From Methanobacteriota archaeon (GTDB lineage Archaea; Thermoplasmatota; E2; DHVEG-1): a stretch of 64,000 nucleotides of DNA. The notes below the pieces were generated by a model. The model searched no databases. It saw only the letters and a list, made by a program, of their open reading frames with translations, and had not been told where the DNA came from. The stretch covers positions 140,495-204,494 of the forward strand of contig CAVYNH010000004.1 of assembly GCA_963769885.1 (NCBI GenBank). Reading direction: 5' to 3'. This document shows positions 37,646-59,291 of this stretch, piece by piece. Position 1 is the stretch's first letter; every line of letters starts with the position of its first letter. A program made the position numbers and the translations under genes.

Positions 37646-38095
37646 TTAAAGGTTGATCCATCGGACGACGACAGATGCGTTTTCATTCCCATCATCGACC
37701 GAGAGCGTGAACTTCCAGAACTTCGAGCTACCGCGAGTAAGTGTCCATTCAAAGGGCCCTGATGTAGCCGTGTATTGAAGAACGCCATTTATGAAAAACT
37801 CGACTCGGGTAACGCCTGGACATCCCGACACGTTTGCGACAAACGTCATCGCGGGGCTATGAAAAATGAGAAGCACCGGAAACGGCAGGATCTTGCTCAT
37901 ATTGTAATAGATACCATTCCGAGGCTCAATCGAGATGTTCCCGCCCAAGGACGCGCCAGTACATAGCGCAGTCCCCGTCCGAACCGCCAACCGACCGCCA
38001 ACCAGTCCCACGATTAATGTTACAAAAACCAGAACCAAAAGCACCGCACGGGCACTTCGCCTAAGGGTATTGTGCATATGATACCTCCCTCTCAT
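37646..38095 (-). CDS. small secreted protein related to the C-terminal half of the OmpL47-like paralogs
   Basis: VTRVEFFINGVLQYTATSGPFEW resembles VNRVEFFCNGELV of the paralogs. Confidence 0.35.
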   Translation of the reverse strand: MRGRYHMHNTLRRSARAVLLVLVFVTLIVGLVGGRLAVRTGTALCTGASLGGNISIEPRNGIYYNMSKILPFPVLLIFHSPAMTFVANVSGCPGVTRVEFFINGVLQYTATSGPFEWTLTRGSSKFWKFTLSVDDGNENASVVVRWINL

Positions 38096-38233
38096 AGAAA
38101 ATAAGCACTAAGCGATTAATAAGACTATCGACCACGCCTTATCAACAGGAGCACCACGCCCGGACCACAACGCTCAAAAATCACGAACCCATTTGCACAT
38201 AAAACCCGTGAAGATGGAAGGAGGGAACCGCCA

Positions 38234-38509
38234 GTGACGAAGCCAATCCTGTTTTCACTTGAACACTGCCCGAAATGCGACCAGACCAAACACCTCCTCG
38301 CCACCCGCACCGACATCGACATCATCACCTTCCCCCATGACCTCTCCGCCTGGACCAGCCAGGACCGCCAGTTCGCTGAAACCCACGACGTCCTCGAAGA
38401 CCTCAAAATCACCGCCCCGATTCTCTGGAAAGACGGCGAAAAAACCATCGGCTACCTCAGAATCAAAAAATGGCTCCAAGACACCGCCACCCAGACAGAA
38501 ACTATTTAG
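38234..38509 (+). CDS. glutaredoxin/NrdH-like small redox protein (CPKC)
   Basis: A CxxC motif sits in a thioredoxin-fold-sized 91 aa ORF. Confidence 0.5.
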   Translation: MTKPILFSLEHCPKCDQTKHLLATRTDIDIITFPHDLSAWTSQDRQFAETHDVLEDLKITAPILWKDGEKTIGYLRIKKWLQDTATQTETI

Positions 38510-38597
38510 CCACCCCTCTCTTTTCAGAAAAATACCCTGATGACTGAGCCTCGATGAGATTCGAAAACGCAAACTCCAGGACCTCAGCCGTCGCTAC

Positions 38598-38942
38598 ATG
38601 AAAGGAGAACCCCAAATGGCCACCGCCCCCAACGCCCCGATCCACATCACAGACGAGGAATTCGACGCGGCCATCAAGAAATACCCGAACCTCGTCATCG
38701 ACTGCTGGGCCCCCTGGTGCGGCCCCTGCCGCATGCTCGGCCCCGTCATCGACGACCTCGCCAAAGAACTCCAAGGAAAAATCACCTTCGCCAAACTCAA
38801 CGTCGACGAAAACCCGCAGACCAGCATGAAACACCAGATCATGAGCATCCCCACCCTCCTCCACTTCAAAAACGGCCAGCTCGTCAACCGCCTCGTCGGC
38901 GCCCTCTCAAAGGAAACGCTTAAACAGCAGCTCGGCGTATAA
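38598..38942 (+). CDS. trxA: thioredoxin
   Basis: The WCGPC active site is present. Length is 114 aa. Confidence 0.8.
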   Translation: MKGEPQMATAPNAPIHITDEEFDAAIKKYPNLVIDCWAPWCGPCRMLGPVIDDLAKELQGKITFAKLNVDENPQTSMKHQIMSIPTLLHFKNGQLVNRLVGALSKETLKQQLGV

Positions 38943-38949
38943 ACCCCCT

Positions 38950-39483
38950 GTGACAACTACCACGGAACCACCCCTCAAGCCGCTCCTTCTCTTCATCCTC
39001 CTGCTCACCCTCATCACGGTCACGGTCGGCTGCACCCAGACCACCACACCGCCGGTCTGGGACGACTTCACCTTCACCACCATCCTCGGTGAAACCAGGA
39101 ACCTCTCCGATTACCGCGGCAGCCCCGTCCTCCTCGACTTCATGGGCGTCGGCTGCGACCCCTGCCGACGAGAAATGAACGTCCTCTCCCAACTCCACCA
39201 CGACTACCCCACCCTCACCATCATCTCCATCGACGTCTGGACCACCCAAGGCGAGACCGCCCAGAGCATCCAACAACTCAAAAAAGACTTCCTCCTCCAA
39301 AACATCACCCTGGACTGGACCTTCGCCCTCGACGACGCCCAAGGCAGCCTCGCAAAAAAATACGCGATCACCGCCGTCCCCTACCTTGTCCTGTACACAA
39401 AACAGGGAAACCTTTATTACTCGCACCTTGGTTATGAGGAATATTCGACCCTAGCGCCCAAGGTCGAGGCAATCACCAGTTGA
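38950..39483 (+). CDS. TlpA/ResA-like thiol-disulfide oxidoreductase lipoprotein (CDPC)
   Basis: A lipobox-like VGC precedes a thioredoxin-like fold with CxxC. Confidence 0.55.
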   Translation: MTTTTEPPLKPLLLFILLLTLITVTVGCTQTTTPPVWDDFTFTTILGETRNLSDYRGSPVLLDFMGVGCDPCRREMNVLSQLHHDYPTLTIISIDVWTTQGETAQSIQQLKKDFLLQNITLDWTFALDDAQGSLAKKYAITAVPYLVLYTKQGNLYYSHLGYEEYSTLAPKVEAITS

Positions 39484-39493
39484 GGGAGATACT

Positions 39494-39985
39494 ATGAAGA
39501 AATTTATCCTAGGAATCCTCCTAATCTCAACACTGACTATCGCTATGAGCGCCGCCGCCGCCGAAACCAAGATCCCCATCCAAGTCGGACCACTCCACTA
39601 CAGCCCCACCACCCCGGCAGCGAAATCCACCGTCACCTTCTCTGCGAACGTCACCGGAGCCCCCACCCAAGTCAACCTCTGGTACCACGAATGCAAACCC
39701 GGCATGTGCTACAGCGACCAAAACATCACCATGACCAAGAACAACGCCTCCCTCACCCTCTTCGAAGCCATCGTCACCTTCAGCCACGCTGACGCCACCT
39801 TCGTCATCGCCCACGTCCTCATCAGCGATAACGGGAGCTGGTTCGCTGGCGACGACGTCAACATCACCCTCACCCCTCCACAAAACGGAAACAACTCAGG
39901 GAAGAAGAGCCCCGGCTTCGAGGTCGTCCCCGTCATCGCCGCCGTAGCAGTTGCTCTTATCATCCTCCGTAAAAAGCGATCCTAA
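39494..39985 (+). CDS. secreted protein with PGF-CTERM archaeal sorting signal
   Basis: A signal peptide is present. The C-terminus is SPGFEVVPVIAAVAVALIILRKKRS (PGF + TM + basic tail). Confidence 0.5.
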   Translation: MKKFILGILLISTLTIAMSAAAAETKIPIQVGPLHYSPTTPAAKSTVTFSANVTGAPTQVNLWYHECKPGMCYSDQNITMTKNNASLTLFEAIVTFSHADATFVIAHVLISDNGSWFAGDDVNITLTPPQNGNNSGKKSPGFEVVPVIAAVAVALIILRKKRS

Positions 39986-40797
39986 TGAAGATCCAGCCAA
40001 AACGACTAATCTCTGAGTTCAGCCTCCTCATCGCAGCGAACCTCGGCGCCTTCGGCATCAAGACCGGGTTCTGCTATCCTTTTTTTTACTGTCAAGCCTG
40101 CCCGGCCGCCGACGCCGCCTGCCCCCTGCGCGCCCTTGAACAAAGCGTCTTCCGCGGCTCCATCACCTGGAAACTCCTCGTCTACCCCCTCATGATCCTC
40201 GGCGCCGTCGGCATCGCCACAGGGCGCGCCGTCTGCGCCTGGGCCTGCCCAATCGGATTACTCCAACGCGGCACCGGCCACGTCGCCCGAAGGGTAAAAA
40301 AACACCCCATCGCAAAGCGACTCGGCTCCTGGAAATACGAGAAATACCTCCGCTACAACAAATACGCCATGGTCGTCGTCTTCGTCTTCCTCACCTCCCT
40401 ACTCATCGGGTTCATCTTCACCGACATCTGCCCCGTCGGCGTCCTCGTCGGCACCCTCCCCATCCTAGCCCTGAACCCCGGCAAGTTCGTCCCCAACTAC
40501 TTCTTCCCCATCGCCATGATCATCTTCGCCCTTTTCCTCATCCTCATCTTCACCGTCGAACGCGGCTGGTGCCGCTACTTCTGCCCCGTCGGCGCCCTCC
40601 TCGCCCCGATGAATAAGGTCAGCATGCTCCACATGGAGGTCGACACCGCCGGCTGCAAACACTGCAACCTCTGCATCAACATCTGTCCCATGGGCATCGA
40701 CGTTCCCTCCATGCACCGGGACCCCGAATGCATCCTCTGCGGCAAATGCGTCGATGCCTGCCCCCACCACCTCGTCAAGTACAAGGTGAAATCATGA
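39985..40797 (+). CDS. membrane-bound polyferredoxin-like protein (NapH/MauN-type Cys-rich)
   Basis: TM helices carry CAWACPIG, CRYFCPVG, CKHCNLCINICP and CILCGKCVDACP motifs. Confidence 0.5.
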   Translation: MKIQPKRLISEFSLLIAANLGAFGIKTGFCYPFFYCQACPAADAACPLRALEQSVFRGSITWKLLVYPLMILGAVGIATGRAVCAWACPIGLLQRGTGHVARRVKKHPIAKRLGSWKYEKYLRYNKYAMVVVFVFLTSLLIGFIFTDICPVGVLVGTLPILALNPGKFVPNYFFPIAMIIFALFLILIFTVERGWCRYFCPVGALLAPMNKVSMLHMEVDTAGCKHCNLCINICPMGIDVPSMHRDPECILCGKCVDACPHHLVKYKVKS

Positions 40798-41414
40798 AAC
40801 GATTACTCGCCGTCCAAATCGGCATCATCCTCGTCCTCGCCGGAGGCATCCTCTACTCCTCCGGCGTCTACACCGCGGTCCAGGACAACATCGTTGAGGT
40901 TCTCTGCCTCAGCTGCATCAAACTCGAGCCGAAGACCTCCGTAGCCTTCACCTTCCTGACCGCCACCGGCGCCCCACACCCCCTCTTCATCCGCGAGAAC
41001 CTCACGGCCGCCCCCATCATGATTATGTACAGCGAGGACGTCTGCGCCGCCTGCGAAGAGATGTACCCCGTCGTCAAACACATGCTGAACGTCACCTTCG
41101 ACAAAGACGACATGGTCTACACCCACACGACTTTCCAAGGGGAGAATGTCACCTTCTTCTTCATCAACATCGACCACACCACCGCCCAGCTCCGCGACAC
41201 CCGGCCGCTCTACGACAAGGAACACGTCGACGGCCTCCCGATGTTCACCTTCATCACGCTCCGATACGACGAAGGCACCGTCCACCCCTACTACACCAGC
41301 GTCTACGGGACCCTGACTCTTCCGAATTCAGCCGAACGCGAGGCTTTCCTCGCCAACATCCTCACCGACAGCATCCACCTCTACCACGAAAACAGAATCG
41401 GCTACCAGCCATAG
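40794..41414 (+). CDS. membrane-anchored CxxC protein (thiol-disulfide system component?)
   Basis: The ATGA start overlaps the stop of the upstream gene. A TM anchor is followed by CLSC and CAAC motifs. Confidence 0.4.
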   Translation: MKRLLAVQIGIILVLAGGILYSSGVYTAVQDNIVEVLCLSCIKLEPKTSVAFTFLTATGAPHPLFIRENLTAAPIMIMYSEDVCAACEEMYPVVKHMLNVTFDKDDMVYTHTTFQGENVTFFFINIDHTTAQLRDTRPLYDKEHVDGLPMFTFITLRYDEGTVHPYYTSVYGTLTLPNSAEREAFLANILTDSIHLYHENRIGYQP

Positions 41415-41458
41415 AAAAGAGAAAAAGGAAAAAAAGGGGAAAATGAACGCGCTTTCCC

Positions 41459-41623
41459 TTACAACTCGCCGCTTCTGATTTTTTGTCTTAGGATGTCAAA
41501 CTGAGCGCGGGTCAGGGTGCAGATGTTGTTCTTTTCACCGATTATCACGCGGTCTTCGCGCACGTCGACAACCGGGCATTTTGGAGGCGTACATACGCCA
41601 TCGTGGCAGAGAACGACTTTCAT
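41459..41623 (-). CDS. small Cys-rich protein (54 aa), not in ORF track
   Basis: The ORF reads MKVVLCHDGVCTPPKCPVV...RSGEL, and the C-x4-C-x4-C pattern suggests metal binding. Confidence 0.25.
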   Translation of the reverse strand: MKVVLCHDGVCTPPKCPVVDVREDRVIIGEKNNICTLTRAQFDILRQKIRSGEL

Positions 41624-41899
41624 AGTTATCCCCTTACTTATTGGTGTTTATTAAAGCTCTTGAACTTTATAAAGATTATGGTTGTCTCTATCCTAAAACG
41701 CATTATGTTTAATTAAAATCGGGCTTGTTATTGGGTCTTTTCGTTAAACAGACTTAATCTTTTCTTTGCACAGGAATATATGTAAAACGAACATTACGGG
41801 TAAAACGGTGAAAAAAATCCAACACATAAGAACATTATTTCAATCATATACTTTTTAAACAGATTCATCATATGAGATTTTATTGATGAGGGTATTATT

Positions 41900-42505
41900 A
41901 TGAGTGAATATCCATATTGTCAGGCAAGAAACAAAATTAAGCCATTTTTTGAGAAAATACAAAGTATAGGAAAGCCAGATAAAGTAACTGTAAAATGGTT
42001 AACTAGCATTGGTTATAAATCATCCAATGACCGCACGATATTATCAGTTTTAAAATTTATCAATTTTACTGATGAAGCAGGAGTTCCCACCAATAAATGG
42101 CAACAATATAAGAATAAGTCAAAATCAAAAATAGTAATGGCTCAAGGAATTCAAATGGGTTATTCTGAACTATTTAAAATATATCCAGATGCTAATAGCC
42201 AAGGAAGAGTAGAATTAACTAATTTCTTCTCAGAAAAAACAGAAGGCGGAAGTGCGGTAGTAGAAAAAATGGTTAGTACATTTACGGAATTATGCTCCTT
42301 GGCCGATTTCGGTTCGGTTGGAGAAGTATCAACAGAAGACGAAAAGACTACCGATACTGAACAAAAAACAAAAAAGGGAGATACCAGCTATAGTGGAAAA
42401 GGATACATCATCAATATCAATATTCAATTAACTGTGCCGGAGACTACTGATGGTGATGTATACGAAAAATTTTTTGCAGCAATGAAAAAGCATCTTTTCT
42501 CTTGA
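41900..42505 (+). CDS. hypothetical protein in AT-rich island (partner of HEPN gene)
   Basis: A 201 aa ORF at about 33% GC, 6 nt upstream of the next ORF. Confidence 0.4.
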   Translation: MSEYPYCQARNKIKPFFEKIQSIGKPDKVTVKWLTSIGYKSSNDRTILSVLKFINFTDEAGVPTNKWQQYKNKSKSKIVMAQGIQMGYSELFKIYPDANSQGRVELTNFFSEKTEGGSAVVEKMVSTFTELCSLADFGSVGEVSTEDEKTTDTEQKTKKGDTSYSGKGYIININIQLTVPETTDGDVYEKFFAAMKKHLFS

Positions 42506-42511
42506 GCAAAT

Positions 42512-43045
42512 ATGAAATCTTTACAAGAAATTCTCGATAAAACAAACAAGTTTGAAGAAGAAGCACATAGAATTTTTTCTAAACATGAAGGAACAAAATC
42601 AGGAACAGTCACACTTACCCAAACTCAAAAAAGACTAACTTGTTTATCTCTTAAACAAAATGAATTATTACAAGAAGCTATAAAAAGTATAAAAAATGAA
42701 TTATATCGAGGAGCCTATGTTCTTGCCTGGGCAGCGTTTATAGATTTTTTAGAAGAAAAACTTGCATCAGATGGATTGGTCAAAGTCAAACAACATAGAC
42801 CTAATTGGAGTAAGTTTAAAACAATCGAAGAGTTAAGAGAAAACGTTCCCGAATTTCAATTAATTGATGTGGCACACGATGTTAATCTCTTGACAAAAGC
42901 TGAGACTAAAACTATACAGGGTTTACTATCAAAAAGAAATGAATGTGCTCATCCAAGTTCTTATACTCCTCGTTTTGCTGAGAGTCTTGGATACCTTGAC
43001 GAAATATTCAATCGCATTGAACAGATACAAAAAAGAAATATGTGA
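42512..43045 (+). CDS. HEPN-domain protein (Rx4-6H motif RNECAH)
   Basis: The C-terminal LSKRNECAHPSSY matches the HEPN R-x4-H signature in an alpha-helical 177 aa protein. Confidence 0.4.
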   Translation: MKSLQEILDKTNKFEEEAHRIFSKHEGTKSGTVTLTQTQKRLTCLSLKQNELLQEAIKSIKNELYRGAYVLAWAAFIDFLEEKLASDGLVKVKQHRPNWSKFKTIEELRENVPEFQLIDVAHDVNLLTKAETKTIQGLLSKRNECAHPSSYTPRFAESLGYLDEIFNRIEQIQKRNM

Positions 43046-43144
43046 AACTATACAAACAAAAAAAGAATCTCTCTTCTGAGAAGTTTTCTAATTTCTCTAG
43101 AAGATTTAGTAATTCGTCCGTTTATCCATTAATCAAAAAATGTT

Positions 43145-43651
43145 CTATCGTCTAGACCTTCTTGCCCTCCTTGGTCTCCTTTCTGTAACACAACTGCATT
43201 TGGTATATCCTTCTTTCTCTAACAGTTCAATAGCATGAGAGTCTTTAATCCCCACTAATTTCGTCTTTTCGCCTTGATAGTGGCTGCATTTGGATATGTG
43301 AATAATTCTTTTCCCTTCATCAACAAGATATGTTGAAAGTCTTGAGTTTCTTTCTGCTCGAAGAAAAACTGTTGCTGCTAATACAACGAAAAAAAACATT
43401 GCTACAAGCAGGATAGCTGTCTCCGCAATTTTTGTTTCGAGCGGGGTTTGCTCATTTAGAATAGTATTTAATTGACCTCCGATCCAAACTACCATACCAC
43501 CAGCAATACCAGCAATAAATCTCTTTGCAAAATCATGATAGACCTTACGTTCCTGTTCAGCAAATTTACGCAAAGTCAATATGTAGTAAGCAGAAATTGC
43601 TGAAGTAGTTATTAGAAGTATAGCTAACGAGGCTAGCGTTATAATTTCCAT
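43145..43651 (-). CDS. membrane protein with C-terminal Cys/His-containing domain
   Basis: Three TM helices are followed by ISKCSHYQG...KCSCV. Confidence 0.35.
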   Translation of the reverse strand: MEIITLASLAILLITTSAISAYYILTLRKFAEQERKVYHDFAKRFIAGIAGGMVVWIGGQLNTILNEQTPLETKIAETAILLVAMFFFVVLAATVFLRAERNSRLSTYLVDEGKRIIHISKCSHYQGEKTKLVGIKDSHAIELLEKEGYTKCSCVTERRPRRARRSRR

Positions 43652-43926
43652 GCTTCAGGTATTCTATTGAGCTGTAAAATATCTTTCCTTAATTCACAGT
43701 CATACCCAGGCGGAGAGTTGGGTGGCGTGATGGGGTCTAACTTCCCTGCAAGTTGTTCCAACGCCTCAGTCTGAGTCAAAGATATAGAAGGAAGTCATGT
43801 GTAGAAAATTATACCTGGATGGAGATATGGAAATATAGATTATGCTGTTTCTATACAAAATTTTATTATGTTGAATCAAAAACCGACCCTCTTGTAAAGC
43901 AGTTTGGAAGTGGTTTTTCGTCTTTG

Positions 43927-45807
43927 TTACCGTCGGGTCTGCATGATCCATTGCAGAATGTTTTGGAACGGATGCAGGGACAGTGCTTTCTGCAAGAGTA
44001 GATAATGGAATGTAGGCTCTAGCACCGGCGTCGCAAGACTGACCGGGATGATCTCGTAGTCCGAGACATTATCGATATTGATAATCTTTATCTGACCTGA
44101 AAACTGGGACTTAGGTTCATCGGGAGCAACCATGGAAACATGAACCGTCAGAGCACCGGCATCCGGTGTAAGATTAGTACCCGATGAGGGAGTAAACGTC
44201 CATGTCCCCCACGTCGGGTAGGAGTCAACCTTCCAATTGAGGAAGGAAAGCTCGTCGCCGATGTTCGCAACGGTGAAACTCCCCTCAACCGTCGCCCCCG
44301 GCTTGATGTTCGACCAGGACAGCGATCCAGTGCACTTTAAATCAGGAATATACTCGACGTGGATTTGATTGTAGTAGAGATAATTGCCAATGGTCAGGTC
44401 CCAATTGGAAACCCCCATGTCAAGCGATTTTGAAAACGTGTACTTTATCTGCACAGAGCTCGCCGGGACAACGCCGACGGTCACAAAGCCCTGGTCCCGG
44501 CTGTACATATACTGCGAAAAATCCAACGTAACTCCATCGACCTTCACGCTATCAATCCGTTGAATATTCCTATTTTTAAGATAAAACAGTCGGCTGCCAG
44601 CGTCGAACGTTTCGGTCACGGTATAGTCGTCTCGGGTTGGGCCAACGTTGCCGAACACGATCTTTTCGACGACGCTGGTACCGCCAGAGGTCCATGATGA
44701 GCTCGTCGGAAGTCCGGTTCCATTATTGAGAAAGATCCAGGTGTTCGTCCACCAGCCTCCAGTTGCAAGGTCAAGCTTGTTATCCCAGTTGACATCTGCC
44801 AACTCGACCGCCGATCCGTACCCCACATAATGGCTCCAGGAATGGGTCGTGGCGAAAAACCCGCTAGGAAGTCCGCTGTACTGCTTAATTAGACCGCTGC
44901 CTCCCTGCTGCGTGTTGTCTGCCGTGAAGAGGTCGCGAAGGCCATCGGCATTGACATCGCCGGAGGTCATCAAATTCCCAAACTGGTTTGCGCTATCGCT
45001 TGTGAACCAGCTTGCCGTCGTCTCAAGGACTCCCCCCAAGTTCCTATAGACCCGAGTTTGGGCGTACGAGGCGACTCCTGCGAGATCGAGCCATCCATCA
45101 GTGTCAGCATCAACCCAATGGACAGACTCCATGATATCTTGGTCGCTGGATTGCCAGCTCGGAGTTGACTCAAGAGTACCACCGATATTACGATACACCA
45201 GGGTGTGGTAGTGGACCCCTGAATAGGAGTCTCCTGTTGCCACTGCCAGGTCGGGGCGTCCGTCGTTGTTCATGTCGCCGAAGTCCACGACAAAGGCATG
45301 ACCGATCAAGGTCGCACTCCAATTTGCCTGAGAGGACAAGGTGCCATGGTTGTTCAGGTAGACGCGAGCAACGTGGCCTGTCGAGCTTCCGGATCCCAGG
45401 TATGCGACAGCGACGTCGAGCCACCCATCGCCGTTCACATCAGCCACATCCAAATGCCCGTTGTATCCGACATCAGCTGATTGCCAGTTCGCCGTTGATG
45501 AAAGCGCTCCGTCCCCGTTATTCAAGTACACATTGACGTGGCCCATTGCCATGTCGTTCCCATCTGAGATGACGAGGTCGAGCCAGCCGTCGTTGTTGAT
45601 GTCAGCAAACTCCGCTCCCGTGGAATAACTTGGGTTACTCGAGATCCAGTCTGGCGTCGTATGATACGGACCATCCACTGGCGATGATCTTTGTGAGGGA
45701 GTACCCTGCGATGGTTGTCCCATGACGAATAGTGGTAAGAAACCGACGATGGATACGGCAATGAATGCGCTGAGAATCTTTCTGTTTTTCATATTGTTCC
45801 CCCACAA
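43927..45807 (-). CDS. secreted FG-GAP/VCBS repeat (integrin-alpha-like) protein
   Basis: A signal peptide precedes repeated DxNxDGxxD motifs (DINNDGWLDLVISDGN, ADVNGDGWLDVAVAY, GDMNNDGRPDLAVATG, etc.). Confidence 0.6.
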   Translation of the reverse strand: MWGNNMKNRKILSAFIAVSIVGFLPLFVMGQPSQGTPSQRSSPVDGPYHTTPDWISSNPSYSTGAEFADINNDGWLDLVISDGNDMAMGHVNVYLNNGDGALSSTANWQSADVGYNGHLDVADVNGDGWLDVAVAYLGSGSSTGHVARVYLNNHGTLSSQANWSATLIGHAFVVDFGDMNNDGRPDLAVATGDSYSGVHYHTLVYRNIGGTLESTPSWQSSDQDIMESVHWVDADTDGWLDLAGVASYAQTRVYRNLGGVLETTASWFTSDSANQFGNLMTSGDVNADGLRDLFTADNTQQGGSGLIKQYSGLPSGFFATTHSWSHYVGYGSAVELADVNWDNKLDLATGGWWTNTWIFLNNGTGLPTSSSWTSGGTSVVEKIVFGNVGPTRDDYTVTETFDAGSRLFYLKNRNIQRIDSVKVDGVTLDFSQYMYSRDQGFVTVGVVPASSVQIKYTFSKSLDMGVSNWDLTIGNYLYYNQIHVEYIPDLKCTGSLSWSNIKPGATVEGSFTVANIGDELSFLNWKVDSYPTWGTWTFTPSSGTNLTPDAGALTVHVSMVAPDEPKSQFSGQIKIINIDNVSDYEIIPVSLATPVLEPTFHYLLLQKALSLHPFQNILQWIMQTRR

Positions 45808-45896
45808 ACTACACGTTTGAAATGACTGAACCTATTAATAAGACCTCAGATACCAGGAAATCCCCCTAACAGAATAATATAGATTATGACTCCTGC

Positions 45897-47267
45897 TTAA
45901 ATATAATCAGCAACGATAATCGACCCTCGATCCACGTTTGAGATAATTCTCAGGCGTCCCTTCTCGATCTGCGCCACCGGCCGCACCGAGACCGTGACTT
46001 CTGGCCCGACCTTCTGTAAGAACTGCGCCTGCAGGAATCGACAGACCTCCTCATCCGACGGCATGGTAATCGTCGGGTCCAACTCCACGAGAATCTCAAT
46101 GGACCGGAGATCGTGCTGGACAATCTTCGTGTTTTTCACCTTTCGCGTCCGCATCTCATAGAGCAGCTTGCTGAAGATCTCCGCAAAAGAAGCCGGCAAC
46201 AGCATCCGGCCGCCGGGCAGAATCAACGACAGGTCGTCCCGACCATAAATCCGGTTAATCAACTGCCCTGACTGCCCGCAGGGACAGGAAGCCTCCTTAA
46301 GGCTGACGATGTCGTTGACTGCATTGTACCGAATTATCGGTGTCCCTGCACCATAGAGTTTGGTAACCACTAAGTTCCCAGCTGTGCCAACGGGAACCGA
46401 CTGCCCTTGACGGACAACCTCGAGGAAGAGGAGATCGGAGAGCACATGATAGCCGCCATGCGTGCATTGGAACGCGATCGGCCCGGTTTCTGTCGCCCCG
46501 TACACTTCGTACACCTGTGCGTTAAAAGCCTGCTGGAGGATCTTCTTCAATGAAGGGTCGAGGATGGAGCCAGTCGCCGTGATGATACGTGGAACCACCT
46601 GGGCGCCTTGCCCCTGCTCCTTGAGTAAGGCGAGATGCCCCAACATGCCGACGTAGCCCCAGATGCAGTCCGGCTGGAACCGTTCGAGTGCATTCATGAC
46701 TTCATCGGGTGGTGAGTTGGTGTCCAGCCATTGGACGTTTTTGAACAACAATGCGTTCGTGCGACCGACGCCGCGGTTCACATACCCGCTCTCCGCGGTA
46801 TGGGGCGCGAAGTCTCCGATGATGCTGATGCGGTCGCGGCGCCAGCGAATGCCATAATGCTGCAGCATCCGCAGGTACCCTAAAAGTCCGATGACGACTT
46901 CGGAGAGGTCCACGTACACGGTGAGGGATTTCCCGGTCGTCCCGGAGGTTGCGACCTGGATCAGCCGGTCTCGATGGGTCTTTGTGGAGACGATACCGTC
47001 AGGGGAGTAATCCGTGATATCGGTCTTGGAGATCATGGGCAGTCTGGTGATGTCAGAGATTCCATTAATGGAAGGGGGATCAATGCCAGCCTTGGTGTAG
47101 ATCGACTGGTACATGGGTACGGTTTGGGCGAAGGCGAGGAGGCGGCGGAGCTGCCGGTCTTGGTAGCGGTGGAGTCGGTCCTCGTCCCAGCGGGAGAGCC
47201 GTCCCATGTCCATCGCGTAGCTTTTCAGCATCCGTGACAGGAAGATAGGATTGCGGAAGGGATCCAT
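45897..47267 (-). CDS. adenylate-forming enzyme, phenylacetate-CoA ligase (PaaK)/F390-synthetase family
   Basis: The TSGTTGK P-loop is present. Length is about 456 aa. Confidence 0.55.
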   Translation of the reverse strand: MDPFRNPIFLSRMLKSYAMDMGRLSRWDEDRLHRYQDRQLRRLLAFAQTVPMYQSIYTKAGIDPPSINGISDITRLPMISKTDITDYSPDGIVSTKTHRDRLIQVATSGTTGKSLTVYVDLSEVVIGLLGYLRMLQHYGIRWRRDRISIIGDFAPHTAESGYVNRGVGRTNALLFKNVQWLDTNSPPDEVMNALERFQPDCIWGYVGMLGHLALLKEQGQGAQVVPRIITATGSILDPSLKKILQQAFNAQVYEVYGATETGPIAFQCTHGGYHVLSDLLFLEVVRQGQSVPVGTAGNLVVTKLYGAGTPIIRYNAVNDIVSLKEASCPCGQSGQLINRIYGRDDLSLILPGGRMLLPASFAEIFSKLLYEMRTRKVKNTKIVQHDLRSIEILVELDPTITMPSDEEVCRFLQAQFLQKVGPEVTVSVRPVAQIEKGRLRIISNVDRGSIIVADYI

Positions 47268-47335: not shown

Positions 47336-48679
47336 ATGAATATCCTGATCGTCGAGACGGTGTGGATGGGACGCGAGCGCTACGGGGTATTCGATACGGC
47401 GTTGTTGACCGCGTTTTCGATTCTGCCCACGCTGCAGGCGCGGCAGTTGGCGGCGATTACGCCCAAGCAGCATGCGGTTACGCTCATCAACGAACGATAC
47501 CAGCAGATTGACTTTGATTGCGGGTATGATGTGGTGTTGATAAATTTCACGACACCCACGGCTCCCCGGGCGTATGCGATTGCGGATGCGTTCCGATCGC
47601 GGCATGTCCCGGTAGTGCTCAGCGGGATCCATGCCTCGGCGGTCCCGCAGGAGGCCAAGGAGCATGCGGACGCGGTGCTGCTCGGACGCGGGGAGCCGGC
47701 CTGGCCTGGGGTGCTTGAGGATCTCAAGAAGAGGTCATTGAAACCGTTCTATCCGCCGGTCCCGTATCCTGCGGAGGGGTCGCTGCCGGATTCGAAGGTA
47801 GAGCTACCTGGGTTCGTGGTGATGGGCGCGGTGGAGGCGTCCCGGGGATGTCCGTATCGGTGTGAGTTCTGCCCGGAGTCGCATCTCTCAGCGGATCAAC
47901 CGTTCGTTCAGCGGCCGGCGGAGGAGGTCGTGGAGGAGGTCCGTCGGCTTCCGCAGCGGATCGTCATGTTCTATGATGGAACGTTGACGGCGGATCCGGG
48001 GTATGCGAAGGCGTTGTTTTTCAAATTAAGGGGCGTGGGGAAGCGGTTTTTTGTGAATGGGAACGTGGATGTGTTGGCGCGTGACCCTGAGCTGGTACGG
48101 TTGTCTCGGGAGGCAGGGTGTCTGGGCTGGTTCATCGGGTTTGAGTCGGTGTGTGAGGCGTCGTTGGCGTCGTATCGGAAACGGACGAATCGGCTCGCGG
48201 AGTATCGTGCGGCGGTCGAGTCAATCCATCGGTATGGGATGGTAGTGTTCGGGAGTTTCATGTTTGGGGCGGATGCGGAGTCCACCTCGGTTTTCGAGGA
48301 GACGCGGCGGGTGATCGAGGAGCTGGGTCTGGATGTGGTCGATTTTTGCGTGTTGACGCCGCTGCCGGGGACGCCGTTGTTTACGCGGTTGGAGAAGGAA
48401 GGGCGGATTCTGACCCGGGATTGGTCTCGGTATACGTTGAACCAGGTCGTGTTTGTACCGAAGCAGATGACGGCTGAACAGTTGCTTCGGGGGACGCAGG
48501 GGTTGTTCGCCTGGTTCTATAGTCCGAAGAACACGGTACGGCGGTTGGCGCGGAGCCTGCGGCTGGGGCTGTTGCCGTTTTGGGTGGTCGCGGGGCGTAA
48601 TCTTGTGGCGACCATGGGGGCGCGACGGCTGCTACAAAAAGATGCGGTTTTAGAGGCCGAGGACGCGGAGCGTCAGTGA
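47336..48679 (+). CDS. B12-binding-domain radical SAM protein
   Basis: An N-terminal B12-binding-like Rossmann domain precedes CPYRCEFC (CxxxCxxC). Confidence 0.6.
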   Translation: MNILIVETVWMGRERYGVFDTALLTAFSILPTLQARQLAAITPKQHAVTLINERYQQIDFDCGYDVVLINFTTPTAPRAYAIADAFRSRHVPVVLSGIHASAVPQEAKEHADAVLLGRGEPAWPGVLEDLKKRSLKPFYPPVPYPAEGSLPDSKVELPGFVVMGAVEASRGCPYRCEFCPESHLSADQPFVQRPAEEVVEEVRRLPQRIVMFYDGTLTADPGYAKALFFKLRGVGKRFFVNGNVDVLARDPELVRLSREAGCLGWFIGFESVCEASLASYRKRTNRLAEYRAAVESIHRYGMVVFGSFMFGADAESTSVFEETRRVIEELGLDVVDFCVLTPLPGTPLFTRLEKEGRILTRDWSRYTLNQVVFVPKQMTAEQLLRGTQGLFAWFYSPKNTVRRLARSLRLGLLPFWVVAGRNLVATMGARRLLQKDAVLEAEDAERQ

Positions 48680-50107
48680 GGTTGTCGCGTTTTTGCCTGT
48701 CGTGTCGTAGGCGATGGCGGTCACGGTGTGGGTCTGGAGACCGAGGGAGATTTTCTTAATCGGCCATTTATAGGAGAATGGTTCGCTGGTGAAGTTCTTG
48801 ACGTGTTTGCCGTCGATGTAGAGTTCAACGCTAGCGATGCCGGAGTCGGTGTCGGTTGCCTTGACCGTGATGGTGGGGCGGCCGAGGCAGAGGGTGACCT
48901 TGGGCTTGAATTTTGTGAGAATGTGCCGGTTCATCAGGTTTAGGGTGTTGGCGACGGGGAAGGTGATGCCGACTGCGGGTGGGAGGTTGCCGCCGGGGAC
49001 GATGAGGGTGGCGTTGCTGGCGTCGATGAAGTAGGCGGTGAACGGCCCTTTTTCCTCTTCGGAGGCACCGCTGGGGTTTGAGTACTCCTTGGTCCCGGAG
49101 CGGCTGTAGAGGGCGGCCAGGATCGCGGTGTTGTCGAAGTCGGTGGTATTCCCGGTGATGGTGTAGTTTTTCATCCATTGCCCATAGGGCTGGATCGTGA
49201 TGGTCTCGTTGGCCAGGATTTTCGTGAGGCCGTAGTGGTAGATGCCGGTGCCGCCGTGGTAGGCCCAGCTGTTGCGGTCGGTGTTGAAGACGCGGAGGGT
49301 CCCAGTATAGGTAGAGTCCGTGTAGCTTGTGATGTTCACCGTGATGGTGGCCATGCTTGAGGTGTTTGTGGCGGTGATGATGAGCTGGAGGGCTGGCACG
49401 CTGCGGTTGGCGGCTTCGGCGATAGCCGCGGCGATGGTTTCTTTGGTCTGGGTGCCGACGAGGATCTTGTAGCCGCCGTCGACGAAGAGCGCTGGGTAGG
49501 CCTTGACGTTGTAGGCGGTGGTGCGGGCCTCGGCGTCGCTGCTCATGTCGTCCACGTACGCGATGTAGGAGAACGCCTTGTCCTCTTCTTCGAGGGCGTG
49601 CAGGGCATCGGCCACGGTGGGGCAGTAGACGCAGCCCGTGTAGGTCGCCTCCTCGATGAAGACATGGTGTGCCAGCGACACGTTCTGCTGCTTGACGGTG
49701 ATGACATAGAAGGTGCTGCCGTCGCTGGAGGGGTTGCCGGCCTGGTTACCGGCCGCGTCTTCCACGAGGACGTAGTATTCGTAGTTCACCGCGAGGCCTC
49801 GTGGGATCGCGATGAGGGCGCTGCCGTTGAGCAGTGAGGTGCTCGTCCAGTTCTTCTCGCCGGCCTTGCGATAGTTCAAGGTCGCGTTCGTTACCTCAAT
49901 ATCGTCGCTGAATGTCGCCTTGATCTGAACGGTCTTCCCCGTGAATGCGGTGGTGTTTCCGGTGACGAAGGAGATGATCGGCGGCGTCGTATCGGAGTTC
50001 GCATTGTTCTGCATGTTCGCGTATAGGTAGACGTAGACGGAGGAACCGGCGAGGGCCGCGATGACGACGACTACGAGGACACGTTTCAGGAGACGCTGCA
50101 TAAGCAA
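48650..50107 (-). CDS. secreted/surface-anchored hypothetical protein with Ig-like C-terminal domain
   Basis: An N-terminal TM/signal, an internal GCVYCP motif and a C-terminal IDGKHVKNFTSEPFSYKW Ig-like segment. Confidence 0.4.
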   Translation of the reverse strand: MLMQRLLKRVLVVVVIAALAGSSVYVYLYANMQNNANSDTTPPIISFVTGNTTAFTGKTVQIKATFSDDIEVTNATLNYRKAGEKNWTSTSLLNGSALIAIPRGLAVNYEYYVLVEDAAGNQAGNPSSDGSTFYVITVKQQNVSLAHHVFIEEATYTGCVYCPTVADALHALEEEDKAFSYIAYVDDMSSDAEARTTAYNVKAYPALFVDGGYKILVGTQTKETIAAAIAEAANRSVPALQLIITATNTSSMATITVNITSYTDSTYTGTLRVFNTDRNSWAYHGGTGIYHYGLTKILANETITIQPYGQWMKNYTITGNTTDFDNTAILAALYSRSGTKEYSNPSGASEEEKGPFTAYFIDASNATLIVPGGNLPPAVGITFPVANTLNLMNRHILTKFKPKVTLCLGRPTITVKATDTDSGIASVELYIDGKHVKNFTSEPFSYKWPIKKISLGLQTHTVTAIAYDTTGKNATTSLTLRVLGL

Positions 50108-54736: not shown

Positions 54737-56896
54737 TCATTGAAGAATCTGCACTCGGAAATGCCATAGAATCCCGATATGGTCCAGGAGCCAGTGTAAT
54801 AGAGGAAACACGGGTCGTTCGACGATGAACGGCATCCGGACATGGAGGCTCCCCCAGTCGCTTTCGACGCCGTACACATCCCGGGCTTTGCATCTAATCG
54901 TATAGGCACCACGTTTCGCCCAGGTATGGGCGATGGTTTGGATCTGCCCAGAAGGAAATGGTCCGATCCAGCCACTCGTAGTATTGTCTCCCCAGTCGAT
55001 GAAATAGGAGAGGGTATCGTTGTTTGAATCGGTTGCGACCACCGTATAGTTGTAAGACCTGCCTGGTTTTCCGGTCGCGGGCCCGTCAATGGTTGGGGTC
55101 GTTGGTGGGATGTTGTCTCCGGCAATGAACGCCCAGGTGGAGTCGCAGGCGATGATACCCACGCCGTCAGTGACCGTGAGGGTGACGGTGTAGTTTCCGG
55201 CGGTGTGGTAGGTGTGGGTGGGGTTCTGCTCGTCAGATGTCGCGCCGTCGCCGAAGGTCCAGTGGTACTGATAGGGTGGTGTGCCGTTCTCGGCTGATCC
55301 GGTGAAGTGGAGGGGGGTTTCGACGGCGCCATGATAGGGGCCGTGGGCGTGGGCGATGCAGCCGCCGATGATCGTGAAGTCTGCGGGGGAGATGGCGGTG
55401 GCGCTGGTGGTGCTGGTGGTGACCGTGATTTTGACGCGGCAGTGGGTTGATCCGGTGCCAGCGACGAGCCATTGGTAGCAGCCGTTGTCTAGCAGATCCG
55501 TGGCAATGGGATACCAGGGTCCTGAAGGACCAGTGAGGGAATAGAAGAGGTCGACTGTGGCATCGCCTTGGGCTAGGGGGACGGCGGAAAGCCAACGGAT
55601 GTTGCGGATGGCGTTGCCAGTGAAGGTTTCACCGCCGTAAGGGGATCTGAGGTGGACCGACAATGCGGTCGGCTCTTGCCAAGGGGAGATGGCGCATAGG
55701 ACGTTGTGCGATTGTTCGATGACGAAGATGACGTCTTCGCGGCCGTCGTGGTCGAAGTCGCCGTCGACGCGCAACATGACGCAGTCTCCGGTCATGAAGA
55801 AGGTAGCATCGGCAGACCAGTATCCTGTACCGTAACCGAGGTAGACTTGGGCGACGTTGGTGGTAAAGGTCATGATGTCTAGGTATCCGTCGGCGTTGAG
55901 GTCGCCGCATTGAACGCGGTAGTCTCCGGTTGTCGGGAGGCCGGTGGAGGCTTGGGTCCAGGTGTTATTGTTTTTATGGTAGAGGTAGGCGCGGACGCCT
56001 TGGTTGTCGTAGGAGATGGCGAGGTCGTCGGTGCCGTCGTTATTGAGGTCGCCGTGATCGAGGCCGACGGCGACGGCGGTGGGGAGTCCGTTTTGGCTGA
56101 GGGTGAAGTTGAAGTGGCCGTCGCCGAGGTAGACGTTGGTGTTGTATTTAGTCCCGATGAAGTCCATGTTTCCGTCGGCGTTGATGTCGCAGGTTTTGAG
56201 GTCGTCGTTGGTGTTGTCGATGGTGTTGGTCCATTTGTGGGTCCAGGTGCCGTTGCCGTTGTTTTTGTAGACGTGGTAGCCGTTGCCGTAGCCGAAGGAT
56301 TGGCTGACGAGGTCGAGGAGGCCGTCGTTGTTGAAGTCGGCGAAGTCGGTGGCGCCCATGCCCCAGGTTTCGCCGCCTGTTCCGAGTCCGGTGGCCCAGC
56401 CGGTCCAGTTGATGCCGGTGCCGTCGCCGAGGGCGGCGCCGATGAGGGTGTCGCCGAAGCCGGGTGTTGAGCTGTAGTCGTGGTGGATGCCCCAGGCGAT
56501 GTCGGGGTGGCCGTCAAGGTTGAGGTCGCCGATGGCGCAGCCGCCGTAGCCGAAGTCGCCGGTTTGGTGGATGGTCCAGGTGCCGGTGCCGTCGCCGAGC
56601 CAGGCCATGATGCCGTGTTCTTGGGTGTTGATGTAGGGGTTGCCGTGGTCGCCGACGCTGAGGATGTCGAGGTGGCCGTCTTGGTTGATGTCGGCGAGTT
56701 CGACTTCCATGGGGCCGCCGTCAAGGCTGGGGGTGTTGAGGCCGGTGGATTTGGGGATGAAGGTGAGTTGGTTCGAGGAGGGGCGTGCCCCGGCGTTGGA
56801 TGATCGGGCGGTCCAAGGGGTCAGAGATGTTGAGCAGAGGAGGATTGTTAAGACGCCCGCGAAAAGGATGCGGTGAAGCGGTGTGTGGTGGTTCAA
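54737..56896 (-). CDS. secreted FG-GAP repeat protein with PKD and PKD-variant (IDWGD) C-terminal domains
   Basis: A signal peptide precedes DxNxDGxxD repeats. A canonical PKD follows (WTFGDGATS..YTVTLTVTD), then ATDSNNDTLSYFIDWGDNTTSGWIGPFPSG...IRCKARD. Confidence 0.6.
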   Translation of the reverse strand: MNHHTPLHRILFAGVLTILLCSTSLTPWTARSSNAGARPSSNQLTFIPKSTGLNTPSLDGGPMEVELADINQDGHLDILSVGDHGNPYINTQEHGIMAWLGDGTGTWTIHQTGDFGYGGCAIGDLNLDGHPDIAWGIHHDYSSTPGFGDTLIGAALGDGTGINWTGWATGLGTGGETWGMGATDFADFNNDGLLDLVSQSFGYGNGYHVYKNNGNGTWTHKWTNTIDNTNDDLKTCDINADGNMDFIGTKYNTNVYLGDGHFNFTLSQNGLPTAVAVGLDHGDLNNDGTDDLAISYDNQGVRAYLYHKNNNTWTQASTGLPTTGDYRVQCGDLNADGYLDIMTFTTNVAQVYLGYGTGYWSADATFFMTGDCVMLRVDGDFDHDGREDVIFVIEQSHNVLCAISPWQEPTALSVHLRSPYGGETFTGNAIRNIRWLSAVPLAQGDATVDLFYSLTGPSGPWYPIATDLLDNGCYQWLVAGTGSTHCRVKITVTTSTTSATAISPADFTIIGGCIAHAHGPYHGAVETPLHFTGSAENGTPPYQYHWTFGDGATSDEQNPTHTYHTAGNYTVTLTVTDGVGIIACDSTWAFIAGDNIPPTTPTIDGPATGKPGRSYNYTVVATDSNNDTLSYFIDWGDNTTSGWIGPFPSGQIQTIAHTWAKRGAYTIRCKARDVYGVESDWGSLHVRMPFIVERPVFPLLHWLLDHIGILWHFRVQILQ

Positions 56897-57208
56897 CCTC
56901 TGTTCCCCCGTTCAGATTCATTAGGTGGTGCCGTATTTTAATGTTGTGCTAAGGAGGGGTGGGTTATCCTTGGTTCTTTTGGTGTGGTAGTAGGTGTAAC
57001 CCGAGGAAGTCAGCCTGGTTTTCGTCTGCTCGCAGGGGGAATCCGGGTCGCCGACGCAGCACAGACCGTGCCCCGGATATTCTACCATTAATTTCCTATT
57101 CCCAATCTGTAACTTAAGTAAGTCTCGCTATTCAAAACTATGTTAGAAGGAATTCTATATTATTATATCTGCAAGAAATAGAAATGACGTATGAAGGATG
57201 AAAAAAGC

Positions 57209-57235
57209 GCAGGGGAAGGGATTTGAACCCTTGTT
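57209..57235 (-). other. partial copy of tRNA 3' end (T-arm + acceptor 3' strand; gcgcaggggaagggatttgaaccc)
   Basis: A 22-24 nt identity to the 3' part of the tRNA-Leu at 59533..59617. No 5' half was found. Confidence 0.5.
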
Positions 57236-57258
57236 TATCGGTACATAGGCGATTTTTA

Positions 57259-58107
57259 CTAGGGAACATATGTTGCTGTTGCAAGAGCTTGACCAAGGTA
57301 AAAACTTATTTTATCAAATTGATTAACGGGGAACCAAATCCTGAGTCCTTTAAAACCAATTAGCCAGTTCAAATTATCATTTATTGATTGCAACCCTTTT
57401 AATCCGAAAGACACCCCTCGGTAGCCGGAATTAATTGTTACCACTGTCCACAGTAAAAGAGGGCTAAACAAATTGAAAATCAACGAAGGAATCCCTACGA
57501 CAGCAGACAGTAATAATGGAATAGCCACCAACATTGCAAGATTAAGATTATTAAAATGAAACATCCCATAGGTAAAAAGCATAAAAAGAATTATCATAGG
57601 TAAAGTCAGCAACCCAAATATTACATCATTTCCTGCTAACACCGAATACATGGACAGCAAACAAAAGACATTGCTAAACGCTAAATGAAATTGAGAAAAC
57701 CTAAGAGAGCCCACCAGTTTTTCAACAGCAGGATGAACTTGATCTGCCGTCACCAACTTCTGTGCCTTTTCAACACTCATACCTTTTGGCAATAGACCAT
57801 ACTTATTGAACTCCACGACTGCTTCCTTGAAGATAGGAACCGCTTCTTCCCTGGTTGTCGTCTGGTTCAATCGTGCTTTGAAATCAACAAGATACTGCTG
57901 TAGGTTCTGATACTGTTGCCTGGTGAGTTTCACAGTGGTATCCCCAAATCCCTGGATACCACAGGCTTGAGTAGTCACTTCAACAAGGTCATTAGTTAGT
58001 GATGCTTTGGCCACATTGAAGTTGATGCTTGGTGCGACTGCAACACCAATGAACAAAAGAATGATACCAATTGCAGAACATTTCCCAATCAGAGGATATT
58101 TTTTCAT
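57259..58107 (-). CDS. membrane protein, paralog of 9000..9800
   Basis: The conserved N-terminal block is shared with 9000..9800. A C-terminal multi-TM region is present. GC is low. Confidence 0.5.
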   Translation of the reverse strand: MKKYPLIGKCSAIGIILLFIGVAVAPSINFNVAKASLTNDLVEVTTQACGIQGFGDTTVKLTRQQYQNLQQYLVDFKARLNQTTTREEAVPIFKEAVVEFNKYGLLPKGMSVEKAQKLVTADQVHPAVEKLVGSLRFSQFHLAFSNVFCLLSMYSVLAGNDVIFGLLTLPMIILFMLFTYGMFHFNNLNLAMLVAIPLLLSAVVGIPSLIFNLFSPLLLWTVVTINSGYRGVSFGLKGLQSINDNLNWLIGFKGLRIWFPVNQFDKISFYLGQALATATYVP

Positions 58108-58400
58108 CTATTCTGCCCCATTTGAAAATGAAGAATACTTCTCTATTTAAAATCTCCGTTAACGTGATTTCTCCAGAAATGAACCGGTATTTCGGAGTTC
58201 AAATCATTTTTTTGTATTCTAGAATTCTTCTCCAGTAAAAATAAGAAAAAAGTGCAGGGGAAGTGATACCAACCTCAAGTTTAAATCTCACGGATCCGTG
58301 GGGGGGTACCTGGTTCCCTCCTAGTGGATTGTTCAATATTGGCCTGTTCTTTGGTTTGTTGAGCAAAGCGGGACTGCTCGTCTTAAATCAGCGAAACAAG

Positions 58401-58423
58401 GGACCGAGGGTGATTTGAACCCA
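58401..58423 (-). other. second tRNA-3'-end-like fragment (gggaccgagggtgatttgaaccc)
   Basis: The T-loop signature TTCAAAT plus an acceptor-like 3' strand. No 5' half was found. Confidence 0.35.
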
Positions 58424-58508
58424 TCTCATATATCCGATATAGTAAAACCCAAAACAACCAAATCAGAATGAACTTCAGCCTTAAAAAAACGACAGGCACA
58501 ATAAGAAT

Positions 58509-59291
58509 TTGTTGGAAGTGCAGAACATGAACGAGAATGCGTTGTACGAGGCTATTTTCAAACGAAAATCGGTTAGAGATTATGACCCAACGCCCATTGA
58601 CTCCAAGCCCCTCGAAGAGATTTCAACGAATTTGCAGTCCTTAAAGCCAATGGTGACAGGGATTAAGACAGAGTTCAGGATTATTTCGCCAAATCAAGTA
58701 ACCAGAAAGTTTAGCAACAAAGCGCCCCACTTCATTGCGGCGTTCTCAGAAGCAAAAGACGCTTACAAAGTCAATATTGGGTTTATGCTTCAACAAATGG
58801 ACCTTTATTTCTCGTCGAATGGGTTAGGCAGTTGTTGGTTGGGGATTCCGCAACCGACCAAAGACGTGGTAGATTCTTCAGATCTTGAGTTTATTATTCT
58901 GATGTCATTCGTAAATTCAAAAGAAACACTTCACAGGACGAACGTTTCGGAGTTCAAAAGAAAGCTCCTTTCGGATATTACCAACATCAAAGATGCTGAC
59001 GAGTTGTTAGAACCAGCTCGTCTTGCTCCGTCAGCGGTAAACATGCAGAACTGGTATTTTACTGGCAATAAGAGCGCAATCCATGCCTATTCAAACAGGG
59101 CTGGATTTCCTATTACTTTCGTTGGGGGAAGTTATTATCCTGTCAACATGGGCATTGCTCTTTACCATTTGCAGCTAGCGGGACAGCACTTTGGGTGGAA
59201 AACCAAATTCGTCTTCGACAAGTCAAAAGATAAAAGTCCCCCTAAGAATCTGGATTACGTTGCAACCGTAGAGAGGGCATTTAACCTATAG
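58509..59291 (+). CDS. nitroreductase-family protein
   Basis: The N-terminal LYEAIFKRKSVRDY motif is typical of NAD(P)H nitroreductases. Confidence 0.5.
   Translation: MLEVQNMNENALYEAIFKRKSVRDYDPTPIDSKPLEEISTNLQSLKPMVTGIKTEFRIISPNQVTRKFSNKAPHFIAAFSEAKDAYKVNIGFMLQQMDLYFSSNGLGSCWLGIPQPTKDVVDSSDLEFIILMSFVNSKETLHRTNVSEFKRKLLSDITNIKDADELLEPARLAPSAVNMQNWYFTGNKSAIHAYSNRAGFPITFVGGSYYPVNMGIALYHLQLAGQHFGWKTKFVFDKSKDKSPPKNLDYVATVERAFNL

Follow-up and report, generated by a model that had tools for sequence, protein, structure and literature searches.

A recently inserted DUF5343–HEPN gene pair with the predicted character of a toxin-antitoxin or abortive-infection-like module

The inserted segment and its genes

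The stretch of DNA considered here (the window) comprises 64,000 nucleotides of contig CAVYNH010000004.1, and positions below refer to it unless another locus is named. Between 41 and 46 kb it contains an inserted block, the AT-rich part of which carries two small co-oriented genes, A and B, and a convergent third gene, C. Gene A encodes a protein of the DUF5343 family and gene B a predicted RNase of the HEPN type, a combination best read as a mobile two-gene module. The features of the locus are listed here by position, with genes taken from the list of open reading frames (ORFs) and with L085 and L086 denoting two syntenic relatives in which the site is empty.

41669-41680, + strand: left copy of the junction repeat, ATAAAGATTATG, from the alignment; single-copy at the empty site of L085/L086
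41681-43832, no strand assigned: segment 1, AT-rich cassette with genes A, B and C; absent from L085/L086, GC 0.29-0.37
41900-42505, + strand: gene A, DUF5343 protein, 201 residues
42506-42511, + strand: A-B spacer, 6 nt from the stop codon of A to the B start codon, a tight and operon-like arrangement
42512-43045, + strand: gene B, predicted HEPN-type RNase, 177 residues, Pfam AF_1680/PF27235
43145-43651, - strand: gene C, predicted membrane ORFan, 168 residues, convergent to A-B
43833-43844, + strand: middle copy of the junction repeat, ATATAGATTATG, from the alignment and a 12-mer scan
43845-45876, no strand assigned: segment 2, host-like GC, with an FG-GAP-repeat surface protein, between the middle and right repeat copies
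45877-45888, + strand: right-hand junction repeat, from which point the sequence is again homologous to the relatives

The G+C fraction (GC) is 0.54-0.62 outside this region and drops to 0.29-0.34 across approximately 41600-43600, with the bin 42001-43000 (0.333) being the minimum of all 64 1-kb bins of the window. The A-B pair itself has a GC of 0.327, compared with 0.553 for the remaining window. A previous annotation made from the letters and the ORF list (the sequence-only reading) had reported this abrupt fall, to about 0.33, at the same place, together with two co-oriented genes of 201 and 177 residues, a 6-nt gap, an RNECAH motif in the second product, and a convergent membrane protein with a Cys/His C-terminal domain, and all of these are present as described. 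The convergent ORF, 43145-43651(-), has hydrophobic N-terminal segments and Cys and His residues at its C-terminus.

The foreign origin of the segment is established beyond composition by comparison with L085 and L086, contigs found via a neighbouring host protein. Their gene order is identical to that of the window at approximately 79% nucleotide identity, and a 54-residue gene is followed by 68 bp and then by an AMP-binding gene; the sequence corresponding to 41681-45876 is absent. BLASTN alignments break at 41689 and 45877, and approximately 21 nt of the relatives' sequence match both edges. The segment carrying A and B is a recent insertion in this genome; the relatives retain the empty site intact. 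The extent proposed earlier, 41640-43700, holds for the AT-rich part (41681-43832) and falls short of the full inserted block, which measures approximately 4.2 kb.

The edges of the block are marked by a 12-mer, ATAWAGATTATG, present in three copies in the window (at 41669, 43833 and 45877) and in one copy at the empty site of L085/L086. These three are the only matches on the + strand of the 64 kb, where 0.27 are expected; on both strands together four matches are observed, a count reached by 0 of 100 shuffles. The left ends of segments 1 and 2 are also alike, with 75% identity over 36 nt (43846-43881 compared with 41683-41718). Segment 2 encodes a 626-residue FG-GAP/VCBS-repeat surface protein (43927-45807, - strand) that is absent at that position in L085/L086 and only approximately 30% identical to the other FG-GAP protein of the window (54737-56896). 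The three-copy repeat architecture suggests that cassettes were inserted in tandem at a single site; neither segment contains a recombinase gene. The insertion site is the promoter region of the 54-residue gene, a Cys-rich ORF (…CHDGVCTPPKCPVV…) at 41459-41623 on the - strand that occupies the same position in L085/L086 and has no family assignment; the core of the junction repeat overlaps a TATA-like box 5′ of it.

Proteins A and B and their pairing

The product of gene B is predicted to be a HEPN RNase-type protein. It consists of an N-terminal helical extension (residues ~1-43) and a HEPN core (~44-177) with the motif R142-N-E-C-A-H147. The PF27235 (AF_1680) family is the precomputed assignment for the exact protein of the window and for all 120 listed homologues, and 1208 relatives are found among cluster representatives at E≤1e-3. 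The stretch KRNECAHP is invariant in 32 aligned homologues, and both R and H are retained in 120 of 120 close homologues. Across 149 representatives of clusters at 50% identity, R142 is kept in 135/135, H147 in 135/136 and N143 in 130/136, with flanking positions variable. Invariant R and H within variable flanks are what a catalytic HEPN site of the R-N-x3-H kind would be expected to show.

Structure prediction is consistent with this assignment. The AlphaFold2 (AF2) model of B is all-helical, with a mean predicted local distance difference test score (pLDDT) of 91, and a Foldseek search of the PDB returns HEPN proteins for nearly all of the top ~20 matches, among them AF_0298, a TTHA HEPN protein, the HepT toxin and the HEPN domain of Csm6. 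The best of these, 2hsb, has a probability of 0.99 and a template-modelling (TM) score of 0.66 normalised to the target. The HEPN signature claimed earlier for the 177-residue protein is thus the conserved core of its family, and it sits in the helical context that a structural check called for, with best PDB matches to HEPN proteins at E-values of 0.2-1.

Profile searches gave a divided answer to the same question: curated Pfam HEPN models all remain below threshold, and a defence-system profile is matched. The PADLOC model PD-T7-3, whose N-terminal part is the HEPN domain of the anti-phage protein DARNA, matches B at E 2.8e-5 and, in that N-terminal part, 16 of the 32 family members (best 9e-8); PADLOC Csx20, a CARF-HEPN model, is matched by 2 of the 32. 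Residues 48-148 of B, RNECAH included, align to positions 17-121 of the 432 in the PD-T7-3 profile, so placed that RNECAH and the R117x4H122 site of DARNA appear to correspond, approximately. A profile search of A and B against PDB sequences gave nothing meaningful.

Protein A, described in the sequence-only reading as a protein of unknown function, belongs to a named family. It matches Pfam PF17278 (DUF5343) over residues 5-139 at E 7e-41 (140.2 bits, cutoff 27), as do 34 of 34 aligned homologues, and it matches the PADLOC candidate model PDC-M34A (PDLC04589) at E 3.3e-50 over positions 4-207 of 208. PDC-M34A also matches the A proteins of other loci and those of A-B fusions. No second Pfam family is found in A at E≤0.1 among the 34 members. 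The protein is laid out as an N-terminal helical domain (~5-139), a disordered acidic and Lys-rich linker (~140-166) and a C-terminal tail (~167-201) with the pattern G.TININIQL.LP.T.D..VYDKFFAAMKKHL, or more loosely G.(I/T)ININIQL..P.T.D..VY.KFFAAMKKHL, which is among the most conserved regions of the family alignment. Its AF2 model has a pLDDT of 85, rising above 94 over residues 11-140, and contains a hairpin at 57-63, a disordered stretch at 146-166 and a C-terminal strand and helix. The order helix-helix-helix-hairpin, read off the model, resembles a winged helix-turn-helix (wHTH) at the N-terminus; no profile or fold match backs it, and the wHTH is a lead rather than a finding. The model has no structural match among PDB and BFVD structures. 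A search of the available literature library on DUF5343, PDC-M34, AF_1680, PF17278 and PF27235 returned nothing relevant; both families are catalogued and functionally uncharacterised.

The pairing of the two genes is conserved in both directions. Eighty genome loci were retrieved with B, of which 76 could be assessed for an upstream gene, B lying at a contig edge in the other four; a DUF5343 gene stands directly 5′ of B on the same strand in all 76, mostly with a spacing of -4 to +14 nt. The hosts include Chloroflexota, Acidobacteriota, Actinomycetota, Planctomycetota, the Candidate Phyla Radiation, Archaeoglobi, Methanomicrobia, Thermoplasmatales and DPANN. Conversely, 80 metagenome loci were retrieved with A, and B directly follows A in 73 of the 76 assessable ones. 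A and B are an obligate dyad, and the two-gene module proposed from the window alone recurs in genomes and metagenomes alike.

Departures from this arrangement provide insight into how the two proteins may be connected. Single-chain fusions of the N-terminal domain of A to the core of B occur in at least 10 clusters at 50% identity. The tail of A is missing from all of them, and several also lack the N-terminal ~43 residues of B. In two of the three metagenome exceptions, a tail-bearing DUF5343 gene is followed after 4-5 nt by a gene for a protein of the PNP_UDP_1 superfamily:

L132, 3995-5516, and L140, 3995-5562: DUF5343 gene with a PNP-type partner gene, the HEPN partner being replaced

The PNP partner, of 291-296 residues, matches Pfam PNP_UDP_1 at E 2e-12 (L132) and 7.5e-16 (L140), and two PADLOC models, "PN-superfamily effector" and PDC-M60C, match it as well. 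A weak alignment pairs the first ~25 residues of this partner with positions 4-26 of the N-terminal profile of B. That the fusions dispense with the tail, and that the loci with a PNP partner keep it, suggests that the tail of A and the N-terminal helices of the effector form a non-covalent link, by which a constant partner may be joined to interchangeable toxic domains. Further fusions join the core of B to DUF7669, a phage-integrase-like domain or unknown N-terminal domains of ~230 residues (P0301, P0381, P0367 and P0372).

The neighbours of the dyad define its limits. Clustering of 541 neighbours of the genome loci yields 491 clusters, the largest spanning 3 loci, and no third gene family recurs beside the pair in these loci. 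Gene C, whose product has an H-x3-C-x-H ... C-x-C motif at its C-terminus behind hydrophobic N-terminal segments, has no homologue except itself among 5.8 billion proteins and no tblastn match in 165 other loci. The sequence-only reading had listed the membrane protein after the pair, implying a part in the system; it is instead a passenger of the insertion, outside the conserved module. A three-gene system with C as effector or anchor of A and B would explain why C lies on the AT-rich insert together with the pair, 100 nt 3′ of B. That arrangement is effectively refuted, and hardly credible, given the lack of homologues of C, including in the 165 loci that carry the pair, and of any recurring third family.

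Regulation by an RNA antitoxin, as in type III TA systems of the ToxIN or AbiF-like kind, was considered and rejected, there being no meaningful tandem array in 41300-46000, and a known non-coding RNA in the island was likewise rejected, with no Rfam match at E≤1. No convincing operator palindrome was seen 5′ of A. Scans for sigma-70 promoters and terminators remain at background level and, with a host that is probably archaeal, are not informative.

The A-B cassette is horizontally mobile, as follows from its absence in relatives, its low GC in hosts and its unrelated neighbours in each genome. In 73 of 75 hosts the GC of the pair is below that of the flanking DNA (median difference -7 points), and the genes at positions -1 and +1 in the 80 genomes belong to 118 Pfam families, mostly housekeeping. 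Association with defence genes is confined to part of the loci. In L005, L021 and L033, from Thermodesulfobacteriota, Moorella and Desulforudis, the pair is co-oriented within a bacteriophage exclusion (BREX) operon, directly after PglX (~950-1030 residues), at about 4400-11900 in each locus. The locus of the closest homologue, L082, adjoins a type I restriction-modification (RM) system, a Schlafen/AlbA_2 protein, RadC and an integrase. No defence genes lie beside the copy in the window. The idea of a defence island is therefore weakly supported: the three BREX loci and L082, near its RM system and integrase, fit it, but the present copy does not, nor do most others, which have housekeeping contexts; comparison of neighbourhoods bears out the conserved pair and gives weak evidence of consistent company of defence genes. 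Three mycobacterial copies (L007, L010 and L016) have in common a gene of ~115-130 residues at position -1 (e.g., L007 6817-7206), which may be a lineage-specific accessory gene or a mark of shared locus ancestry.

Predicted function and its alternatives

The reading that best fits paired genes, a HEPN motif and mobility is that A and B form a self-contained, mobile module of the type II TA or abortive-infection-like kind, a prediction to which a probability of about 0.6 is assigned and which agrees with the function originally proposed for the locus. The pair has the layout of a TA module: small co-oriented genes with short spacing, an upstream partner built as domain, linker and tail, mobility and a patchy distribution. 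B would act as a HEPN endoribonuclease. As in other HEPN enzymes, two B subunits would presumably associate and share a composite active site built from R-x4-H. The dimer would then cut cellular RNA (tRNA, rRNA or mRNA), bringing about growth arrest. A would be its dedicated protein partner, made just upstream from the same transcript, and probably docks onto B via the conserved C-terminal tail, most likely against the N-terminal helices of B. Bound in this manner, A would gate the RNase, which would be released upon loss of A or upon a cue such as virus infection or loss of the plasmid or cassette. The fusions lend indirect support to a direct association of the two proteins.

A may control B either as an inhibitor that is removed or as a sensor that activates. 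Gene order, the domain-linker-tail build of A and the solitary chromosomal contexts favour a classical antitoxin, whereas stable fusions, effector swapping, PADLOC candidacy and embedding in BREX loci favour a sensor or gate.

Taken to its full extent, the latter view makes A a positive sensor or adaptor of a viral cue, possibly a nucleic acid bound by its N-terminal domain, that activates or recruits a swappable effector in abortive infection, much as the C-terminal domain of DARNA does within a single chain. This is a possible, distinctly less probable, account of the same observations. The exchange of unrelated effector domains on a constant A is a hallmark of immune systems, and single-chain A-B fusions are maintained. 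A matches PDC-M34A, the PNP partner matches PADLOC effector models, and the HEPN domain of B is akin to that of the defence protein DARNA; three genomes carry the pair in BREX operons, and in L082 its neighbours include a type I RM system and an integrase. However, most copies are solitary amid housekeeping genes, the gene order and architecture of A suit a classical antitoxin equally, partner swapping is known for type II TA systems too, and nucleic-acid binding by A draws on a wHTH-like topology read off the secondary structure of the model.

The housekeeping surroundings of many copies, which include tRNA synthetases, NrdD and a beta-CASP RNase, raise a different alternative, namely that A and B are a housekeeping pair for RNA processing or nucleotide binding, with B being a non-toxic maturation HEPN protein or an inert ligand binder. 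Some HEPN proteins, such as Las1, are indeed housekeeping enzymes. This account is nonetheless very unlikely, because close syntenic relatives lack the pair, its occurrence is scattered over very distant phyla, its composition is foreign in 73 of 75 hosts and its neighbourhoods are not conserved. The invariant R and H argue for catalysis, and a swap to a PNP nucleosidase would be senseless for RNA maturation.

Several observations weigh against a gated suicide RNase of the TA or abortive-infection-like type. For the HEPN assignment, the Foldseek E-values of 0.2-1 are weak, and the Pfam matches of B fall short of the gathering scores: HEPN_RiboL-PSP is found at E 0.01 (16 bits, gathering 28) and in 2 of 32 family members, and HEPN_MAE_28990 at E 0.04 (14 bits, gathering 27) and in 1 of 32. 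The fold of A offers no functional clue in structure, PDB-sequence or Pfam searches. Concerning the docking, the N-terminal similarity between the PNP partner and B amounts to a weak 7 bits in L132 and a marginal E of 0.04 in L140. Covariation between the tail of A and the N-terminus of B, analysed by mutual information with average product correction (MI-APC) in 133 natural pairs, gives counts of 1, 2 and 4 against 0.8, 2.1 and 4.2 expected; the top MI-APC pairs look phylogenetic or compositional, and covariation is uninformative on the tail contact. Stable A-B fusions argue against a labile antitoxin that is degraded, and a sensor or gate role fits them equally well. As for context, most copies lie outside defence islands, the pair stands alone amid housekeeping genes in 4 of 4 long contigs with Pfam annotation, and relatives of B sought on IMG/VR viral contigs gave no confirmed match, so that a defence role is not demonstrated.

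A broader proposal, tentative at best, is that DUF5343 is a modular immune or addiction family spanning Archaea and Bacteria, in which a constant sensor or gate would hold interchangeable toxic effectors, mostly a HEPN RNase and sometimes a PNP-type nucleosidase, via docking between tail and N-terminal helices. That docking would be dispensable upon fusion, and the N-terminal domain would represent a new fold for sensing a cue of infection or stress.

Related systems and other features of the window

Prokaryotic immune systems repeatedly employ HEPN RNases as suicide effectors, with Cas13, Csm6, DARNA, HepT and type IX retrons as examples, and how each of them stays silent is the interesting question. 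The A-B dyad contributes to it a regulator, DUF5343, with a confidently predicted fold and no known structural match, in a pairing that is widespread across many phyla of both prokaryotic domains. The novelty is judged to lie in the partner family of this HEPN toxin module and in its modular architecture of docking and effector swapping; the type of module is familiar. Natural fusions and the swap from HEPN to PNP give testable hypotheses on the connection between partner and effector. The practical payoff is modest unless a defence phenotype emerges.

Among characterised proteins, DARNA alone resembles B detectably at the level of sequence profiles. In this E. coli anti-phage protein, also known as PD-T7-3 (Vassallo et al. 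2022, PMC9519451), residues 1-159 form a HEPN domain confirmed by cryo-electron microscopy, with the catalytic site R117x4H122 (bioRxiv 10.64898/2026.02.22.705581). The domain cleaves tRNA anticodon loops in abortive infection, and it is activated by a C-terminal Pds5-like domain that senses single-stranded DNA within a 456-residue chain assembled as a dodecamer (bioRxiv 10.64898/2026.02.22.705581). In both proteins the R-x4-H site would be expected to stay gated as long as no trigger is present. B, in contrast, has 177 residues, no Pds5-like domain and a separate DUF5343 partner instead, and the homology is at the level of the domain only.

The HEPN-MNT (HepT-MntA) type II/VII TA systems share with A-B two small co-transcribed genes, a HEPN toxin with R-x4-H, mobility and a patchy distribution, and HepT structures are among the best matches to the model of B. 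They differ in the partner: A is an all-helical DUF5343 protein, with no nucleotidyltransferase family match at E≤0.1 in its 34 members, and B has an additional N-terminal helical extension. Since A is not a minimal nucleotidyltransferase, neutralisation by AMPylation is not expected, and the pair falls outside the HEPN-MNT modules.

In the type IX retron Retron-Kva2, a winged-helix (WH) protein serves as antitoxin by sterically covering the active site of a HEPN dimer in an abortive-infection system (bioRxiv 10.64898/2026.07.14.738597). The combination of a HEPN nuclease toxin with a small helical or WH partner is similar to A-B. Yet the pair has no reverse transcriptase or multicopy single-stranded DNA (msDNA) gene nearby, the HEPN protein of the retron is without the canonical R-x4-6-H that B possesses, and the likeness of A to the retron WH protein is at present one of analogy.

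PDC-M34 is one of the PADLOC PDC systems, which are computational candidates (PADLOC-DB v2.0.0). A matches PDC-M34A at full length, whereas PDC-M34B is matched neither by B (E≤1) nor by any of the 32 members of its family (E≤0.1), and A-B therefore cannot be filed as a complete PDC-M34 system.

The Abi-type HEPN proteins (AbiJ, AbiD/F, MAE_18760 and RiboL-PSP; PMC3710099) likewise combine a HEPN effector with variable N-terminal sensor or regulatory domains and are occasionally embedded in RM or BREX loci, and the sub-threshold hits of B are to RiboL-PSP and MAE_28990. B is set apart from them by Pfam matches that all lie below gathering scores. The HEPN census of Anantharaman et al. 2013 (PMC3710099) lists no architecture with DUF5343 as partner or fused domain. 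There is also published precedent for HEPN RNases as backup suicide effectors within BREX loci, and it matches the three BREX loci found here.

Elsewhere in the window, further patches of lower GC (0.40-0.46) occur at 1-6000 and 57000-59000. The second of these adjoins a tRNA-Leu(CAA) gene (59532-59617, - strand) and carries a 282-residue membrane protein and a 260-residue ORF of unassigned function; no recombinase or integrase was seen in the low-GC patch at 56.5-60 kb. The host genes, for example at 38000-41400 and 47800-49000, have a sense strand rich in C and A, with a GC skew of about -0.3 and an AT skew of about +0.3, and because of this unusually strong strand bias the ORF list includes many long antisense ORFs that are spurious.

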